A stretch of 32,000 nucleotides of DNA from Pseudoalteromonas tetraodonis (lineage in GTDB: Bacteria; Pseudomonadota; Gammaproteobacteria; Enterobacterales; Alteromonadaceae), in assembly GCF_002310835.1 (NCBI RefSeq), contig NZ_CP011041.1, positions 450,001 to 482,000 on the forward strand. Reading direction: 5' to 3'. The notes under the pieces are model-generated. The model was not told where the DNA came from, made no database searches, and saw only the letters and a list, made by a program, of their open reading frames with translations. A program made the position numbers and the translations under genes. Positions 3,315 to 25,678 of this stretch are shown piece after piece. Position 1 is the first letter of the stretch. Every line of letters starts with the position of its first letter.

Positions 3315-4214
3315 TCAGGACACTTTTTTTAAGGAACTTTGCTCATACTTTACTGGCGATAGATCACCATGAGCAGTATGAAGTCGCTCTAAGTTGTAAT
3401 AGCGCATATACGCTGCCACATCATTTCTCATATGCTCACGAGTTGGTTGCGGAACTTTCAACAGCCAATCATGTTTTAAGCTGCCGAAGAATCATTCAAC
3501 AACCGCATTATCCCAACACGCACCGACATCGCCCATACTGGCTCTGACGCCATAACTCCATAGTAATTGTCGATATTGTTTACTGGTGTACTGTGAACCT
3601 CTATCACTGTGAAACACCAAGCTTTTTGGTGGCTGCCGTAAGTTATAAGCTTTCATCATCGCCTTGCTAACTAAGTCAGTCGTCATGCGTTTATCAATAT
3701 GCCAACCAACAATACGACGTGAATATAAGTCCATGACGATAGCCAGATACATCCAACCTTCGCCAGTTCTTAGATAAGTCACATCACCAGCCCACACCTG
3801 ATTTGGCGCAACAGGATTAAAGTTCTGATTCAAAAGATTATCAGCAACGGCATCACTGTGTTTACGCTTGGTTGTTACCTTGTATGCCACTCGTTGAGTA
3901 ACGACTAAACCAAGTGTTGCCATTAATTTCTGAACGCCATAATCACTGACGCTAAAGCCCTCACTGCGTAACTTCTTTCTAAGCTCTCGGTAGCCTAAGC
4001 TATTTCTGCTTTTCTTGAAGAAATACTTGGCCTTTCGATATAAATTAAGCTGCTCTACAGTAATTACTTTTGCTGGCCGCTTAAGCCAAGCATAATAAGC
4101 ACTGCGGCTTACTTTCATCACTTTGCAGAGCTTAACCACGGGAAACACCGAGGATAACTGCTTAATCGTTTTAAACGTTACTTGGTTTCTTTTAGCAGGA
4201 GGGCGCTGGCCTTT
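3315..4214 (-). pseudogene. IS3-family transposase OrfB (DDE), disrupted
   Basis: The track ORF 3492..4148 ends ...CWDNAVVE at a TGA (3494-3492). The same frame continues FFGSLKHDWLL...YYNLERLHTAHGDLSPVKYEQ... to a stop at 3317-3315 inside the IR. This is a nonsense codon in the conserved NAxxE(R/S)FFxxLK motif. In addition, the canonical -1 frame after the slippery site reads KKASALLLKETK and then hits TAA (4180-4178). OrfB proper is in the other frame, so one more frame change is needed. Confidence 0.65.
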
Positions 4215-4464
4215 TTAAAATTTCTTTTTCCATCCTTAGCTCTTTATTTTCCTTGCGAAGCCTTAACAGCTCAGCCCGCTCATCAGCATGCAAACTGGCA
4301 CCAGATTGTTCTGCTTCAACTTTAGCTTTCCAGTTATAAAGTAATTTATCTGTGATACCTAAAGACGCTGCTGCCTTAGGTACGCTGTAACCTTGCTCGG
4401 TTACCAATGCCACAGCTTCTTGTTTAAATTCTGCTGTGTAACTTCTGTTTGTTCGTTTTGTCAT
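4192..4464 (-). CDS. IS3-family transposase OrfA (HTH domain)
   Basis: A 90-aa ORF, MTKRTNRSYTAEFKQEAVALV...ENKELRMEKEILK, showing the classical IS3 OrfA pattern (helix-turn-helix plus leucine zipper). The slippery-like sequence TTTAAAAAGG lies at 4219-4210. Confidence 0.85.
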   Translation of the reverse strand: MTKRTNRSYTAEFKQEAVALVTEQGYSVPKAAASLGITDKLLYNWKAKVEAEQSGASLHADERAELLRLRKENKELRMEKEILKRPAPSC

Positions 4465-4590
4465 TTAACACCTCAATAATTGGATTATATTCCATTATTA
4501 AAGTGTCCTGTTTGATTAAAGCAGATCAGGGTTAGGTGATGAATAAATAAATGACGAATTGCTTTTAATTAATCCCAAACACAATCCTGC

Positions 4591-4625
4591 CGAACCCCGA
4601 ACCCCGAACCCCGAACCCCGAACCC
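4591..4625 (+). repeat. Heptamer array (GAACCCC)x5
   Basis: Five perfect tandem 7-nt units read directly. The array lies between the IS right end and trmJ. Confidence 0.95.
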
Positions 4626-4793
4626 CGCAATTAAGCTATTAGTTTCTCCGCAAGGTTGAGTTCCATTGTTGCTTTTAATAAACGGTATAAGTTAATTGAT
4701 GCGTCTATTTCTTCTTCTATTGAATATAGGATCTCAGCGCGTTTTCATGCTAGAATTTGCGCAATTTTTTTGTACTCGATAAGTAGCACTGTA

Positions 4794-11147: not shown

Positions 11148-11491
11148 GTAGCAGCGGGTTTACCCCGCGTCTTTTTAAAGTTAAAGGCGAAAGGTTAAAG
11201 GCGAAAGGTTAAAGGGTTACGAGCTTCGGGTGACGGGCCTCGAACCTAGTACCTGCGCAAGCTTTTTTCTCTGTGTAGCGCGCAGCGCCTCGGTGCACTC
11301 TGTGGTAAAAAACATTTTGTAGCAGCGGGTTTACCCCGCGTCTTTTTAAAGGTTAAAGGCGAAAGGCAAAATGTTACGAGCGACGGGCGGCGGGTAAATT
11401 AAAATTAAAAAGTCTTGTAGCGTTAACCACAAGGCTTTTTTAATTTATCGAAGCCCGAAGCCCAAAACCCGAAGCCCAAAACCCAAAACCC
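11148..11491 (+). repeat. Composite intergenic repeat: 2 REP-like hairpins, 7/14-nt arrays, a CTCTGTGG box, a conserved hairpin and a heptamer array
   Basis: GTAGCAGCGGGTTTACCCCGCGTC occurs at 11148-11171 and 11319-11342, each followed by TTTTTAAAG and (GGTTAAA/GGCGAAA) units. TTCTCTGTGTAGCGCGCAGCGCCTCGGTGCACTCTGTGGT lies at 11267-11306. An 11-bp-stem hairpin lies at 11407-11441. (CGAAGCC/CAAAACC)x6 lies at 11449-11491 and ends 10 nt before the gabD RBS. Confidence 0.9.
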
Positions 11492-11507
11492 ATTTTGGAG
11501 GTATATT

Positions 11508-17796: not shown

Positions 17797-17873
17797 TGGG
17801 GCGATTGACGGGGCTCGAACCCGCGACAACCGGAATCACAATCCGGGGCTCTACCAACTGAGCTACAACCGCC
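17797..17873 (-). tRNA. tRNA-His (anticodon GTG) with encoded G-1 and CCA
   Basis: The minus strand reads G-GCGGTTG-TA-GCTC-AGTTGGTA-GAGC-C-CCGGA-TTGTGAT-TCCGG-TTGTC-GCGGG-TTCGAGC-CCCGT-CAATCGC-C-CCA. It folds into a full cloverleaf with a 7-bp acceptor stem. The extra 5' G pairing with C73 is the tRNA-His hallmark. Confidence 0.95.
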
Positions 17874-18032: not shown

Positions 18033-18722
18033 TCTTCTCTGTGTAGCGCGAAGCGCCTCGGTGTACTCTGTGGTTCAAAATGGTTTTTTAGGCGGGGGTT
18101 ATCACGCGCAGGTGGTTTTAGGCAATAAACTTATTCACAAAGAGGTTAAGAGACGCTGCTCTTTTAGAGCTAGTGAAAAAACAATTAATCACTCGGGCTC
18201 ATGGTTATTGTTTTCTCATTTACTCCTCATTCACCTCTCTTTGTGCAAAAAGATCTTAAAGAGATTTTATTCACCACAGAGGGTTAGTGCACACAGAGGA
18301 AATGATTAAAGACATGTTTTATTTGTTTTGTCTTCTCTGTGAAGCGCGTAGCGCCTCGGTGTACTCTGTGGTTCAAAATGGTTTGTAGGCGGGGGTTATC
18401 ACGCGCAGGTGGTTTTAGGCAATAAACTTATTCACAAAGAGGTTAAGAGACGCTGCGCTTTTAGAGCTAGTGAAAAACAATTAATCACTCGGGCTCATGG
18501 TTATTGTTTTCTCATTTACTCCTCATTCACTTCTCTTTGTGTAAAAAGATCTTAAAGAGATTTTATTCACCACAGAGGGTTAGAGCACACAGAGGAAATG
18601 ATTAAAGACATGTTTTATTTGTTTTGTCTTCTCTGTGAAGCGCGTAGCGCCTCGGTGTACTCTGTGGTGCAAAAAATTAAAACACTATTTACCACAGAGG
18701 TCACAGAGGAAGAGATTAAAGA
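18033..18722 (+). repeat. Tandem MITE-like elements: two 296-298 bp units plus one about 95 bp minimal unit, each bounded by CTCTGTGG-box inverted repeats
   Basis: The anchor CCTCGGTGTACTCTGTGG recurs at 18056, 18354 and 18650. Units 1 and 2 differ at about 9 positions, including 2 single-nt indels. Left arm: TTCTCTGTG..CGCCTCGGTGTACTCTGTGGT. Right arm: ACCACAGAGGGTTAG(T/A)GCACACAGAGGAA. The third unit keeps only the two arms (18627-18712). Confidence 0.9.
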
Positions 18723-18881: not shown

Positions 18882-18923
18882 CCTCGAACCTCGAACCTCG
18901 AACCTCGAACCTCGAACCTCGAA
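18882..18923 (+). repeat. Heptamer array (CCTCGAA)x6
   Basis: Six perfect units read directly, about 90 nt upstream of the mscS start. Confidence 0.95.
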
Positions 18924-19015
18924 CCTTGTAAAACGCTGTTGCAAACACGTATTAAAGATTTACAATACAATAAACAACACCGCTAAACTGCTTAATAACA
19001 CTATCAGGAGTTAAT

Positions 19016-20781: not shown

Positions 20782-20845
20782 TTTGCTCATAAATAATGTA
20801 TGATACCCACCAATTTTGGTTGTAGACCTAGGGAAATACCTACTC

Positions 20846-23512
20846 GTGAACGTTATTAAACATTTATTAAGTGCTTTTGTACTTATATGTAGCTTTAGCA
20901 CATTAGCATTTGCGCCAACAGCCGCTCAACTTGAGCAGTTTCAAAAGTTGCCTAAGTCTCAACAGCAGGCACTTGCAAAGCAATATGGCGTAGACATTTC
21001 AAGCCTTGAAGGTGCAGGCAATGCCAGTGGCAAAAATAACGAACAAGATAAACCCACAGTAGGTGAGCGTAATACCGCCGACGAACAAGCTTTTACAGAT
21101 GAAGAACGCTTTAAGCCCGAAGATAACACGGTAAAACCATTCGGTTATGACTTATTTGCCGGCGAACCCACCACATTTATGCCCAACGAAAATGCTGCAG
21201 TACCCGATACGTATTTAGTGGGGCGTGGCGATCAGCTATTAATCAACTTTTACGGTAAAGAAAGCGCAAGCTACGAAGTCATCGTTGATAGGGAAGGACG
21301 TATTAACATTCCCGACTTAAGTCCTGTTCAGGTAGCTGGTTTAACCTTTGCTGAAGTTAAAGAGTTAATAAAAGTAAAAGTTGAACAAGAGATTATAGGT
21401 GTTAAAGCGTTCGTATCGCTTGGTAAACTTCGCAGCATTCGTATTTTAGTATTGGGTGAAGCATACAAACCAGGTAGCTATAGTGTGTCGTCATTGACTA
21501 CAGTGTCGCATGCATTATTTGTAAGTGGTGGCGTGTCGGATATTGCCTCACTGCGTAATATTCAAGTAAAGCGCGGTGGTAAGGTTGTTACTAACTTTGA
21601 TTTATACGACTTACTTATTCGCGGTGATAGCAGCAACGATATTATTTTAAAACCGGGTGACGTGGTATTTATACCGTCGGTTGGCGAGCAAGTAACCGTT
21701 GATGGTTTAGTAAAACGCCCTGCTATTTTTGAGCTTAAAAAAGGCGAAACGGCAGAACAATTATTAAAAATGGCGGGCGGCATCAAGCCAAATGCTTACG
21801 CTAAAAGCGTGATAGTTGAACGTTTTAATAACCAACATAAAGAAGTGCTTTCGGTAGATTTTAGCAAAGAGCAAGTTAACTACATTCCACAAGATGGCGA
21901 TCGTATTCGTTTTAGCGCGATTGGTGAGCAATACCAAACTTCAATTAGTTTAATTGGTGCTGTAGTACGCCCTGGTAATTACCAGTGGTACAAGGGTAAG
22001 CGCATTTCAGACATATTAGGCTCAGTACGTGGTGACTTACTACCGCAAGCCGATTTAGATTATGCATTAGTAGTGCGCGAAACCAACGTAAATGGTGATA
22101 TTGAAATTCATCAGTTCGATTTAGCAAAAGCTATTACAAAAGATACTGAGAACAACTTACAACTTAACCCTAACGATAAAATTATTGTATTCAGTCGTTT
22201 TGAAGAAAAAGCATTAGAAGATATAGCGCTTGCAAATTTAGCGTTAACTAAAGAGCAGCAAGATCAACAACGCAAAGCAGAGCTTTGGCATGAATACCAA
22301 CAAAAAGAGTTCGAAAAGTATGTTGGTGTAGCGACTAAAAAGTCAGAGTTTGAAGAGGTAAACCCAAATTTAAGCATGGCGGAAATGCTTGAGAAAAAGC
22401 TTAAAGAACAAGAAGAAGATGCAAAAAGCTATGCCTTGTTCAGCCGCCATAATTTACTTAAACCGGTAATTGCTAAGTTAGAGCAGCAGGCCGGTGTAAT
22501 GCAGGCGATGCAAATAGTGGAAATTAGCGGCAGTGTAATGTACCCAGGCATTTACCCGTTAATGGAAGGCGGTGAAGTAAAAGACCTAATTACTGCTGCG
22601 GGGGGCTTATTAGAGTCGGCTTATACACAACAAGCTGAAGTAACAAGAATTGCCAATAACGATGTATCAAACATTGAGCATATTAAGTTTGATTTAAAAA
22701 GTGCTATGCAAGGTAAAGCGGCATCTAATATTTCATTACAAAGTAAAGACAGCGTAAATATATTTGCTATACCAAACTGGCAAGAAAACCTAAAAGTAGA
22801 GCTAAGGGGGGAGCTTAAATTTCCGGGCACCTATACTATTCGCCGCGGTGAAACCTTAAGTAACTTACTTGAGCGCGCCGGTGGCTTTTCTGAGTTTGCT
22901 GCAACCAATGCCGCTGTATTTACTCGCCAATCAATTAAAAAGCAAGAGCAACAACAGCTAGCGCGTTTATCTACCGAGCTTCGCCGTGATATAGCATCAA
23001 AAAGCTTTCAAAGTTCAGTTAGTAGCAACACACTTACTTACGATGAAATGAATAAACTTCTCGCAGATTTAGCAAATGTAGATGCCGTAGGCCGTTTAGT
23101 TATAGATTTACCGCTTATTGTTAATAATGAGCAAAACCTAGTACTGCAAGATGGCGATGTACTTTATGTGCCTAGTGAACGCGACTCAATCAGTGTAATA
23201 GGTGAGGTTAATTACTCTACCTCGCATCTATATAAAGCAGGCATAAGCGTAGACGAATACATAGACCTAAGCGGTGGCTTAAAAGAGCGCGCTGCTGATG
23301 ACCGTATTTATATAATTAAAGCAAATGGCTCAGTAAAAATACCAAATACCGGCAACTGGTTTGCAGTTAATAACTCAAACCAACTTGAACCTGGCGATAC
23401 CATTGTTGTCCCACTAGATGCAGGCCATATGGATAAGCTAACGCTTTGGAGCACCGCAACACAGATTCTATATCAACTAGGTGTAGCAGTAGCAGCCATA
23501 AGCGGTATTTAA
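20846..23512 (+). CDS. Large polysaccharide export protein (Wza/OtnA-like; Poly_export plus multiple SLBB domains)
   Basis: The track ORF runs 20816..23512 with a TTG start. GTG at 20846 gives MNVIKHLLSAFVLICSFSTLAFA/PT, a clean signal peptide. A Poly_export motif is present (YLVGRGDQLLINFYGKE...GRINIPDLSPVQVAGLTFAEVKELI). GDxxxVP SLBB-type repeats recur along the protein. Confidence 0.85.
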   Translation: MNVIKHLLSAFVLICSFSTLAFAPTAAQLEQFQKLPKSQQQALAKQYGVDISSLEGAGNASGKNNEQDKPTVGERNTADEQAFTDEERFKPEDNTVKPFGYDLFAGEPTTFMPNENAAVPDTYLVGRGDQLLINFYGKESASYEVIVDREGRINIPDLSPVQVAGLTFAEVKELIKVKVEQEIIGVKAFVSLGKLRSIRILVLGEAYKPGSYSVSSLTTVSHALFVSGGVSDIASLRNIQVKRGGKVVTNFDLYDLLIRGDSSNDIILKPGDVVFIPSVGEQVTVDGLVKRPAIFELKKGETAEQLLKMAGGIKPNAYAKSVIVERFNNQHKEVLSVDFSKEQVNYIPQDGDRIRFSAIGEQYQTSISLIGAVVRPGNYQWYKGKRISDILGSVRGDLLPQADLDYALVVRETNVNGDIEIHQFDLAKAITKDTENNLQLNPNDKIIVFSRFEEKALEDIALANLALTKEQQDQQRKAELWHEYQQKEFEKYVGVATKKSEFEEVNPNLSMAEMLEKKLKEQEEDAKSYALFSRHNLLKPVIAKLEQQAGVMQAMQIVEISGSVMYPGIYPLMEGGEVKDLITAAGGLLESAYTQQAEVTRIANNDVSNIEHIKFDLKSAMQGKAASNISLQSKDSVNIFAIPNWQENLKVELRGELKFPGTYTIRRGETLSNLLERAGGFSEFAATNAAVFTRQSIKKQEQQQLARLSTELRRDIASKSFQSSVSSNTLTYDEMNKLLADLANVDAVGRLVIDLPLIVNNEQNLVLQDGDVLYVPSERDSISVIGEVNYSTSHLYKAGISVDEYIDLSGGLKERAADDRIYIIKANGSVKIPNTGNWFAVNNSNQLEPGDTIVVPLDAGHMDKLTLWSTATQILYQLGVAVAAISGI

Positions 23513-23518
23513 TATAAT

Positions 23519-23544
23519 GTAGCTGCGGGTTTATCCCGCAGCTG
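23519..23544 (+). repeat. REP-like hairpin, possibly the terminator of the export gene
   Basis: GTAGCTGCGGGTTTATCCCGCAGCTG has a 9-bp perfect stem, AGCTGCGGG pairing with CCCGCAGCT. It lies 7 nt after the stop and has no T-run. Confidence 0.7.
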
Positions 23545-23616
23545 TTCTAAGGTTTTAGGCACAAGGTACTAGGTGCGAGGAAAGCCTAGAACCTAGAACT
23601 TAAAAAAGGAATTACT

Positions 23617-24006
23617 ATGAAGTTTGAACAGTTGGATGTTTGGAAAAGAGCTTCAAGGCTGGCTTGTGATATTTATAAAGCAACAGCCAAATGTAAAGAC
23701 TATGGTTTTAAGGATCAAGTTACGCGTTCTGCTATTTCAATTCCTTCTAACATAGCGGAGGGCTTAGAAAGAGACTCGCAGGCCGATCAAGCTAGGTTTT
23801 TATATTATGGCAAAGGCTCTGCCGGTGAGCTGGTAACGCAGATATATATAGGTATTGAAATAGGTTTTATAGAGCGAGAACTGGGTTTGAAATTGATTAA
23901 TGAATCGAAAGAAGTTGCTAGTATGCTTGCAGCATTAATTAACATTAGGAAAAGTCATATTAAAGAGCCTGAGCCGAATTATAATTTTGACGAACCTAGA
24001 ACCTAG
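23617..24006 (+). CDS. Four-helix-bundle protein (23S rRNA intervening-sequence protein / Avd-like family)
   Basis: 129 aa. MKFEQLDVWKRASRLACDIYKAT...SIPSNIAEG..R.S..D..RFLYYGKGSAGEL.TQ is the characteristic pattern of this family. An AAGGA RBS is present. The last 14 nt, including the TAG stop, are AACCTAG repeat units. Confidence 0.8.
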   Translation: MKFEQLDVWKRASRLACDIYKATAKCKDYGFKDQVTRSAISIPSNIAEGLERDSQADQARFLYYGKGSAGELVTQIYIGIEIGFIERELGLKLINESKEVASMLAALINIRKSHIKEPEPNYNFDEPRT

Positions 24007-24587
24007 AACCTAGAACCTAGAACCTAGAACCTAGAACCTAGAACCTAGAACCTAGAACCTAGAACCTAGAACCTAGAACCTAGAACCTAGAACCTAGAAC
24101 CTAGAACCTAGAACCTAGAACCTAGAACCTAGAACCTAGAACCTAGAACCTAGAACCTAGAACCTAGAACCTAGAACCTAGAACCTAGAACCTAGAACCT
24201 AGAACCTAGAACCTAGAACCTAGAACCTAGAACCTAGAACCTAGAACCTAGAACCTAGAACCTAGAACCTAGAACCTAGAACCTAGAACCTAGAACCTAG
24301 AACCTAGAACCTAGAACCTAGAACCTAGAACCTAGAACCTAGAACCTAGAACCTAGAACCTAGAACCTAGAACCTAGAACCTAGAACCTAGAACCTAGAA
24401 CCTAGAACCTAGAACCTAGAACCTAGAACCTAGAACCTAGAACCTAGAACCTAGAACCTAGAACCTAGAACCTAGAACCTAGAACCTAGAACCTAGAACC
24501 TAGAACCTAGAACCTAGAACCTAGAACCTAGAACCTAGAACCTAGAACCTAGAACCTAGAACCTAGAACCTAAAACCTAGAACCTAA
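23993..24587 (+). repeat. Heptamer array (AACCTAG)x85, 595 bp
   Basis: There are 82 consecutive perfect units (23993-24566), then AACCTAA, AACCTAG, AACCTAA. Phase continuity was checked line by line. A two-unit copy of the same motif lies at 23585-23599, upstream of the four-helix-bundle gene. Confidence 0.97.
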
Positions 24588-24626
24588 AACAATAACTTGA
24601 CCTAATGTTCTCGTTATTCAATTTTT

Positions 24627-24689
24627 GATAGCTGATAGCTGATAGCTGATAGCTGATAGCTGATAGCTGATAGCTGATAGCTGATAGCT
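24627..24689 (+). repeat. Heptamer array (GATAGCT)x9
   Basis: Nine perfect units read directly. The array ends 17 nt before the wzz ATG. Confidence 0.95.
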
Positions 24690-24706
24690 GAACTTATGAG
24701 ATTTAA

Positions 24707-25678
24707 ATGGAAAACAACTCAAACAATCTAAATCAGGCAAATACACCAGTGGTTAATTATAATGCTGCTGATGACGAAATAGATCTACGCGAACTATTTA
24801 CCGCTATTTGGCAAGGCAAGTGGATTATCATTGCTGTAACTACCTTATTTGCTGTTGCATCTGTTTTTTACGCCATTAACCAGCCTAATATTTATAAATC
24901 AGAGGCGTTACTTGCTCCTGCAGAGCAAGACAAAGCGGGTGGCTTAGGTGCATTAGCCGGCCAGTTTGGTGGCCTAGCAAGTTTAGCTGGGGTTAACTTA
25001 GGTTCCGGTGGCAGGGTCGATAAAACGCAAATGGCGCTTGAGGTACTAAAATCACGCCAGTTCACCAGCGAGTTTATTAAAAAGCACAATATACTACCCG
25101 ATTTAATGGCAGCTAAAGCGTGGAACCGTGAAACTAATACAGTTATTTACGACGATAAGCTTTATATTGCAGAGCAAAATAAATGGATACGTAAAGTTGA
25201 ATTACCCTTTAAACCCGAGCCTTCAATGCAAGAGGCGTATAAAGAATTTAGTAAAACTATTAGTGCAAATAAAGATAAAGAAACTGGCATGGTTAAAATT
25301 GCCATAGAGCACGTATCGCCTTATGTAGCGCAGCAATGGGTAAACTGGTTAATACAAGACATAAACGCCACCATGAAACAGCGCGAAGTGCTAGAGGCAA
25401 ACAAAAGCACCGATTTTTTAACTCAGCAATTAGAGCAAACTAAAATAGCTGACATACGAGCTGTACTTTATAAGCTAGTAGAAGAGCAAACAAAAACAAT
25501 TATGTTTGCCAATGTGCGTGATGAATATGTGTTTAAAACGATTGACCCAGCGATAATTCCAGAGCAAAAGTTCAAACCTAAAAGAGCCCTGATTTGTATC
25601 TTAGGGACATTAATAGGTGTCTTTTTAAGTAGTGTACTTGTGCTAATAAAGTACTTTCTTAAACAAGACAAAGAATGA
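24707..25678 (+). CDS. wzz: Polysaccharide chain-length determinant protein (Wzz family, PCP-1)
   Basis: 323 aa. The Wzz N-terminal motif is present (DDEIDLRELFTAIWQGKWIIIAVTTLFAVASVFYA). It has a long periplasmic coiled region and a C-terminal TM segment (LICILGTLIGVFLSSVLVLI). Confidence 0.85.
   Translation: MENNSNNLNQANTPVVNYNAADDEIDLRELFTAIWQGKWIIIAVTTLFAVASVFYAINQPNIYKSEALLAPAEQDKAGGLGALAGQFGGLASLAGVNLGSGGRVDKTQMALEVLKSRQFTSEFIKKHNILPDLMAAKAWNRETNTVIYDDKLYIAEQNKWIRKVELPFKPEPSMQEAYKEFSKTISANKDKETGMVKIAIEHVSPYVAQQWVNWLIQDINATMKQREVLEANKSTDFLTQQLEQTKIADIRAVLYKLVEEQTKTIMFANVRDEYVFKTIDPAIIPEQKFKPKRALICILGTLIGVFLSSVLVLIKYFLKQDKE

Follow-up and report, generated by a model that had tools for sequence, protein, structure and literature searches.

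A runaway heptanucleotide array upstream of wzz in Pseudoalteromonas tetraodonis, probably the 3' arm of an intervening-sequence-like PF05635 cassette

Immediately 5' of wzz, the chain-length determinant gene of a glycan cluster in Pseudoalteromonas tetraodonis, the heptamer AACCTAG is repeated about 85 times, and the locus raises the question of how such an array arose and to which gene it belongs. We analyzed the 32,000-nucleotide stretch that contains it (hereafter the window; contig NZ_CP011041.1 of RefSeq assembly GCF_002310835.1, positions 450,001 to 482,000 of the forward strand), and all coordinates below are those of the window. A preliminary description of this DNA had presented the array as a control element specific to wzz and the glycan genes; our results instead attach it to the gene on its other side, a member of the PF05635 family. 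We consider it probable that the tract, a heptanucleotide microsatellite in hyper-expanded form, makes up the 3' arm of a cassette resembling the intervening sequences (IVS) of 23S rRNA, with slippage, pairing of the arms and an effect on downstream genes as its presumed properties. The largest feature before wzz would then be no dedicated regulator but the runaway 0.6-kb tail of an inserted cassette.

Tandem Repeats Finder (TRF) reported a single period-7 array at 23992-24590, with 85.6 copies, 99% matches and a score of 1184. A regex scan and TRF agreed with the 595-bp tract of the preliminary description: a block of 82 perfect AACCTAG units on the plus strand (23993..24566), which we take to be the expanded part of the 3' arm, is followed on the same strand by three terminal units (24567..24587, regex scan), AACCTAA, AACCTAG and AACCTAA, two of which carry the G>A change reported before. 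The period-7 identity is perfect over 574 bp and cannot have arisen by chance. With 85.6 head-to-tail copies, 82 of them perfect, the tract is a long simple sequence repeat (SSR), or variable-number tandem repeat. Since the unit contains TAG on both strands and 7 is coprime with 3, each reading frame is closed within 21 nt. The proposal that the array is non-coding held past its first 14 nt, where all frames are stopped, and failed for those 14 nt, which are coding. The strong avoidance of CTAG that had made the array seem conspicuous was overstated for this genome; outside the array we counted 70 CTAG sites in the window against 83 (Markov) or 111 (mononucleotide) expected, a mild deficit only.

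The coding nucleotides belong to the upstream open reading frame (ORF), 23617..24006 on the plus strand, which encodes a 129-aa four-helix-bundle protein of the S23p / 23S rRNA intervening-sequence protein family (PF05635, 1.8e-31). The protein also matches TIGR02436 and NF008912, as well as PDB entry 2gsc (XCC0516; 4.9e-15), and no anti-phage defence model was matched when it was run through PADLOC. The ORF ends in GAC GAA CCT AGA ACC TAG, and the array supplies its last four codons and its stop. Compared with its homologues the ORF has a dN/dS of 0.04-0.08 and is under strong purifying selection.

The other flank of the ORF is also repetitive. A 5' arm of about five degenerate heptamers (TTCTAAG, GTTTTAG, GCACAAG, GTACTAG, GTGCGAG and a final G), with AGG recurring every 7 nt, occupies 23543..23581 on the plus strand. 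It is followed, again on the plus strand, by two direct CCTAGAA units in the orientation of the big array (23585..23599; 2.1 copies by TRF) and by a ribosome-binding site, AAGGA, recognized from its sequence (23606-23610). The 5' arm forms a duplex with the end of the array (24547-24584) of -38.7 kcal/mol (z = -7.2 against 500 shuffles), an energy reached by none of 825 other segments of 76 nt. In this duplex the end units, including the two G>A variants, pair with GGTTTTAGG...TTCTAAGG of the 5' arm. An allele with 12+3 units, described below, has a minimum-free-energy fold that encloses the ORF through 29 long-range pairs. Because the imperfect end units complement the 5' arm, it seems that they represent the arm in its original state and that the 82 perfect units were added inside it by recent expansion; the 3' arm probably ended ancestrally in the three terminal units. 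A reading of the two arms as direct repeats, drawn from the first 150 nt after the stop only, was given up when the duplex with the array end revealed an inverted stem.

The same cassette occurs in relatives. Protein homologues 67-97% identical share a layout of (CTAGGNN)n, ribosome-binding site, an ORF ending in EPRT and the stop, and (AACCTAG)n; the arrangement of direct units and then a ribosome-binding site before the ORF is also present in loci L212-L215. The gene order is wza-wzb-wzc-ORF-ugd with five AACCTAG units in one metagenome locus (L212), ugd-ORF with at least 18 units up to the contig end in another (L214), ORF-wzz with four units and without a GATAGCT array in Pseudoalteromonas sp. 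D48 (L215), ugd-ORF-epimerase with 5-6 units in Vibrio alginolyticus (L216), and permease-ORF-cysC with 22 units in P. shioyasakiensis (L031). A Shewanella locus (L218) has wza, 27 units, the ORF, 13 units and wzz. We assign the array to the PF05635 gene and not to wzz because the stop of the ORF lies inside the array, because the array end units complement the 5' flank of the ORF, and because the ORF and its AACCTAG tail precede ugd, an epimerase gene, cysC or wzz in the relatives.

Several of these loci have peculiarities of their own. The 5' arm of the V. alginolyticus cassette (about 2780-2990 of L216) consists of roughly nine copies of a AAGGAACTAGGAAGTG-like 14-mer followed by direct CCTAAAA-type units, showing that arms can double their period. 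Two PF05635 cassettes are inserted within sulfate-assimilation operons, that of P. shioyasakiensis (983-1372 of L031) between the permease gene and cysC, and one in a Colwellia metagenome-assembled genome (MAG; 1276-1638 of L075) between cysD and cysN, with the structure (NTAAGCT)x4-ORF-(AGCTTAT)x4. An Acidobacteriota MAG carries (GTTCCAC)x20-ORF-(GTGGAAC)n, and AACCTAG-type arrays flank the ORF on both sides in a Dehalococcoidia MAG.

To see how far this arrangement extends, we used a metagenome sample of 80 homologous loci obtained from an alignment of six such proteins and picked regardless of repeats. A flanking array was defined as a period-7 array of at least 2.5 copies within 200 nt of the ORF, and ORFs on the same contigs served as controls. 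Such arrays were found upstream of 44/71 homologues and 8/97 control ORFs (p = 6e-14), downstream of 38/71 and 9/97 (p = 3e-10), and on both sides of 29/71 and 1/97 (p = 5e-12). The period was 7 in 75 of the 103 flanking arrays and mostly 6, 8 or 9 in the remainder. Heptamers stood on both sides in 45 loci, and in 22 of these the downstream unit was the reverse complement of the upstream unit (allowing rotation and at most one mismatch), compared to 4% of random pairings. Upstream units were G-rich and downstream units C-rich. Pairing between the upstream and downstream flanks was stronger than pairing with the reverse-complemented downstream flank (Wilcoxon p = 1.6e-6), which was not so for controls (p = 0.79).

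Among 34 homologues sampled independently from viral contigs, arrays lay upstream of 25, downstream of 22 and on both sides of 15. Eighteen viral loci had heptamers on both sides, and their units were exact reverse complements in 13 and one base off in four (17/18). The inverted heptamer bracketing of PF05635 ORFs is thus general and is replicated across phyla and on viral contigs. The median arm has 4.4 copies, and on viral contigs the upstream arm holds 4.x copies in 20 of 26 cases; since arms normally hold 4-5 copies, the 85 of the window amount to a runaway expansion of about 20 times the norm. Protein identity and unit similarity are weakly correlated (Spearman -0.08); the units evolve fast, and sharing of a unit tends to be confined to homologues more than about 65% identical.

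The bracketed ORFs are co-oriented with their upstream neighbour in 57/62 cases and with their downstream neighbour in 49/65, with median gaps of about 70 nt. Their commonest neighbours are nucleotide-sugar and polysaccharide genes, and further neighbours include rpsI, metK, ahcY and adenylylsulfate (APS) kinase genes; rpsI, metK and ahcY are probably highly transcribed. In four of 20 scanned metagenome loci (L135, L138, L144 and L151) the ORF is followed by a tRNA gene at a distance of 40-60 nt. An Rfam scan of 20 homologous metagenome loci placed none of them within rRNA.

The mechanism that we propose starts from this anatomy. The cassette consists of a 5' heptamer arm rich in purines, then a ribosome-binding site, a PF05635/S23p ORF of about 125 aa, a stop supplied by the array and, as the reverse complement of the first arm, a C-rich heptamer arm on the 3' side; such cassettes stand co-directionally between operon genes, often in polysaccharide loci. 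The 82 perfect units may have been produced by replication slippage (slipped-strand mispairing) of one unit in a 4-5-unit arm. By analogy with the intervening sequences of 23S rRNA, whose stems are cut by RNase III, the arms may pair in the transcript. A transcript running from wza to wzz would cross 0.6 kb of untranslated RNA in which C is twice as frequent as G, a plausible loading site for Rho. RNase III processing, Rho loading or both could lower or uncouple downstream expression in a length-dependent manner, and arm length could in this way tune read-through into the glycan genes. Our best guess at the function is that of an IVS-like stem combined with a long untranslated C-over-G spacer between wza and wzz.

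A number of observations weigh against the cassette interpretation. The arms are unbalanced here, with about five decayed units on the 5' side and 85 units on the 3' side, and two direct units also stand 5' of the ORF. At two loci, L218 and L066, the 5' and 3' arms are direct rather than inverted. Mismatches in the arms have no G-U bias (5 sense-wobble, 8 antisense-wobble and 23 other), and we found no difference between sense and antisense duplex energies; given this lack of an RNA-level signal, the complementarity could operate at the DNA level, as terminal inverted repeats or through templated quasi-palindrome correction. The contrast of 15 with 85 units comes from two assemblies of one type strain and may reflect short-read collapse. 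The window holds at least five other heptamer arrays that have no PF05635 gene nearby. Finally, (AACCTAG)n arrays with n of at least 3 occur at 120 or more loci of species-representative genomes, and a PF05635 ORF is adjacent in only 2/120 and present within the fetched 8 kb in 6.

The last two observations are what a generic neutral microsatellite would predict, that is, that marine gammaproteobacteria gain intergenic heptamers by slippage and that the adjacency of the four-helix gene is incidental. The AACCTAG loci are mostly from Pseudoalteromonas, Shewanella, Vibrio and Photobacterium, extend to Acidobacteriota, Chloroflexota and the candidate phyla radiation, and never lie inside ORFs; period 7 accounts for four of the six perfect short tandem repeats of the window (at least 3 copies, unit of 4-12 nt); and heptanucleotide long SSRs are the commonest prokaryotic class (Mrazek 2007, as cited in PMC4679880). 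Chance adjacency does not, however, explain the 11- to 66-fold enrichment of arrays beside PF05635 ORFs relative to the control ORFs, the reverse complementarity of the two sides of the ORF, the conservation of the unit together with the ORF at differing loci, or the fit between the terminal variant units and the 5' arm. We regard the neutral account as improbable. The converse idea, that most AACCTAG arrays are cassette arms, was rejected on the 2/120 loci with an adjacent ORF. The arrays that lack a PF05635 gene imply that cassette arms are one context of a wider repeat phenomenon.

Four of the other heptamer arrays of the window are intergenic and lie at 4590-4627 (CCGAACC, 5.4 copies), 11175-11215 (TTAAAGG/14-mer), 11449-11492 (CGAAGCC/CCCAAAA) and 18882-18926 (CCTCGAA, 6.4 copies), each shortly 5' of a plus-strand gene (SpoU methylase, aldehyde dehydrogenase, MscS). 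Outside the window, Shewanella sp. KJ2020 has a solo (AACCTAG)x18 array (4328-4453 of L126) about 60 nt upstream of wza and without an adjacent PF05635 gene; it is possibly a relic of recombination between direct arms such as those of L218.

The suggestion that copy number varies agrees with what we found. A draft assembly of the same type strain (L002), whose flanks are 100% identical, has 12+3 units compared to 82+3 in the window, and 12+3 units were also found in L008, a contig of metagenomic origin that is 98.2% identical and represents another strain. The end units of the array are identical in all three. The homologous cassettes hold 4, 5, 5-6, 13, at least 18 and 22 units, with a full range of 4-27, which leaves evolutionary instability in no doubt. 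The GATAGCT array is polymorphic as well, with at least 13 units in L008 and nine in the window.

The figure of 12+3 in both L002 and L008 raises the possibility that the 85 units are an error of the long assembly and that the true array has about 15. We consider such an artefact very improbable. The array was found in all assemblies and only its length is at issue; arrays of 13-27 units in relatives do get assembled; and collapse by short-read assemblers is likelier than inflation by long-read assemblers. The L002 contig spans the AACCTAG array and ends where the GATAGCT array starts, and this ending, together with the additional GATAGCT units of L008, represents differences beyond collapse alone. 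A collapse of L008 cannot explain why it holds the greater number of GATAGCT units. In practical terms, assemblies of this capsule/O-antigen locus from short reads break at the array or may collapse it.

Variable length next to a surface-polysaccharide gene also suggests a contingency locus or rheostat, in which the array would have been selected because slippage-driven changes in length switch or tune wzz and the glycan genes. From the stop of the four-helix gene (24006) to the ATG of wzz (24707) there is a gap of 700 nt, in which non-repetitive sequence is confined to 24588-24625 and 24692-24706, about 53 nt in total, in line with the 55 nt or so of the preliminary description. The first of these segments is a unique 38-nt spacer (24588..24625, plus strand) containing TTGACC (24597-24602), after which the promoter scan found no acceptable -10 element; between the two lies the second array, (GATAGCT)x9.4 (24626..24691, plus strand, TRF). 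The promoter scan gave zero sigma-70-type sites in 23400-24800, and thus no match downstream of the array, so a transcript that reaches wzz from upstream must cross the repeats, as had been anticipated. We could not place a promoter for wzz, and the AACCTAG array sits 5' of the gene.

The absence of a promoter match between the array and wzz is consistent with the contingency proposal, as are the length differences of both arrays between assemblies and the fact that phase variation classically targets surface-polysaccharide loci. A precedent is provided by the 7-bp repeats upstream of hmw1A and hmw2A in Haemophilus influenzae (PMC8262952; PMC12721329). It is nevertheless the four-helix ORF, and not wzz, with which the array co-occurs, and the AACCTAG tail also precedes ugd, the epimerase gene and cysC. 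Moreover, the ORF-wzz order of Pseudoalteromonas sp. D48 is accompanied by only four units, with no GATAGCT array, and the repeat brackets of the ORF are family-wide and found in many phyla and contexts. We therefore view selection for control of wzz as unlikely, and retain the cassette as the better account of the array.

Near-identical cassettes at different loci hint at mobility, and the sequences offer some of the features of a transposable element. Inverted arms are present, a transposase is absent from the cassette, and no target-site duplication was evident by inspection at 23543/24587. One way to account for the distribution is a portable homology patch, with the ORF and its arrays at module boundaries acting as recombination sites for the exchange of downstream serotype-specific genes. 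ORFs 84-97% identical do lie at wzc|ugd, ugd|epimerase, wza|wzz and DegT|Polysacc_synt_2 boundaries in Pseudoalteromonas and Vibrio alginolyticus, in polysaccharide loci that are otherwise different. Cassettes also adjoin rpsI, metK, ahcY, cys genes and tRNA genes, contrary to such a role, and we do not expect the homology patch to prove correct.

A broader proposal built on the cassette is that PF05635 genes with inverted heptamer arms make up a widespread, undescribed class of operon-embedded elements, of which the rRNA intervening sequences are a special case. The arms, with 4-5 heptamers that match the homopentameric ring of the PF05635 protein, would be that protein's own binding sites or the ends used by the element in mobility or processing, and expanded or orphaned arms would be one source of the cyanobacterial short tandemly repeated repetitive (STRR) sequences and of the TAACTGA, GGGAATC and AACCTAG repeats. 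We offer this proposal tentatively, as a possible but doubtful extension.

The surroundings of the cassette are those of a polysaccharide locus, and its four-helix protein and Wzz are exactly those of Pseudoalteromonas tetraodonis GFC. The upstream neighbour encodes an 898-aa Wza-like polysaccharide export protein (20816..23512, plus strand; Pfam Poly_export, SLBB and SLBB_2), and directly after its stop is a GC-rich hairpin, AGCTGCGGG-TTTAT-CCCGCAGCT (23521..23543, seen in the sequence), resembling repetitive extragenic palindromic (REP) elements; a terminator-like match was obtained at this hairpin on the minus strand only. REP-like GC-rich hairpins of the form GCGGGTTTAYCCCGC recur in intergenic positions at 23521-23543, ~11150, ~11320 and ~18785. 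Downstream, wzz (24707..25678, plus strand, by Pfam) is followed in order by genes for Bac_transf, a family 2 glycosyltransferase (GT2), UDP-glucose dehydrogenase, NUDIX and ManC (Pfam). A motif scan did not find the JUMPStart/ops motif GGCGGTAG in the window, and an Rfam scan of the window returned tRNA only and no rRNA.

Two further repetitive features lie elsewhere in the window. A 296-bp unit is present in 2.2 tandem copies (97% identity) at 18033-18674, beside the minus-strand tRNA gene at 17800-17872; segments of the unit are found again at 11255-11346 and, with 81-95% identity, in other Pseudoalteromonas genomes (L114, L012 and L040), indicating a dispersed intergenic repeat family. At 3492-4464, between the cyclase and SpoU methylase genes, are remnants of an IS3-family transposase (rve and HTH_21, with a separate 90-aa ORF).

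PF05635 is a very common family of unknown function whose relatives include Avd of diversity-generating retroelements and the ORFs of rRNA intervening sequences. The window protein shares with Avd the Pfam family and a pentameric four-helix-bundle fold, as seen in its relative XCC0516 (PDB 2gsc). The context is unlike that of Avd, with no reverse-transcriptase domain in the 20 window ORFs scanned, and neither a reverse transcriptase nor a template/variable repeat pair of a diversity-generating retroelement among the window genes.

In H. influenzae, 7-bp repeats in the promoter or 5' untranslated region (UTR) of hmw1A and hmw2A tune expression through their copy number, with the involvement of a 5'-UTR element that RNase III targets (PMC8262952; PMC12721329). 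The window likewise has a heptamer SSR 5' of a surface-structure gene. It differs in that the hmw repeats occupy the genes' own promoter region, vary within a population and have measured effects on expression, whereas the array is part of an inserted cassette.

Long heptanucleotide SSRs are known as the STRR sequences of cyanobacteria and as TAACTGA arrays in Beggiatoaceae, cyanobacteria and Bacteroidetes, the longest reported with 43 copies (PMC4679880), and as GGGAATC arrays in Xanthomonas, where about 70 pairs of them are convergent (inverted) (PMC4692102). The window resembles these genomes in having intergenic tandem heptamers, several units per genome and lengths that differ between relatives, and its 85 copies exceed the TAACTGA maximum. 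The AACCTAG array is a new and extreme member of this class (PMC4679880, PMC4692102), and its sequence is in no paper of the searchable open-access literature. The units AACTGAT, ACTGATA and CTGATAA that flank PF05635 genes resemble the published TAACTGA, and a text search of the two heptanucleotide-SSR papers gave no link to PF05635. The GATAGCT unit of the window is also similar to TAACTGA and to the CTGATAA and ACTGATA units beside other PF05635 genes. The bracketing rule provides a handle both on the role of the IVS protein and on the dominance of heptanucleotides among prokaryotic long SSRs.

The closest parallel is the rRNA intervening sequence of Coxiella burnetii and Leptospira. In the searchable open-access literature, the only paper connecting PF05635, TIGR02436 or S23p with heptamer repeats is that on the Coxiella 23S IVS, where a stem cleaved by RNase III accompanies an S23p ORF that was judged expendable and is preceded by GACAGAT heptamers, 2-3 in number depending on the strain (PMC4990558). 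The window cassette lies between wza and wzz in a protein-coding operon and not in helix 25 or 45 of 23S rRNA, its arms are wholly tandem heptamers with one arm of 85 copies, and its ORF, unlike the expendable ORF of Coxiella, is under strong purifying selection. The rRNA stems are cut by RNase III, whereas the stem of the window is known from a computed fold. In common with the rRNA elements, it has a PF05635 ORF between complementary termini that form a stem around it in that fold, and it shares tandem heptamers with the Coxiella IVS, in which they stand just 5' of the ORF and vary in number between strains. The cassette is, in these respects, an IVS-like element outside rRNA.

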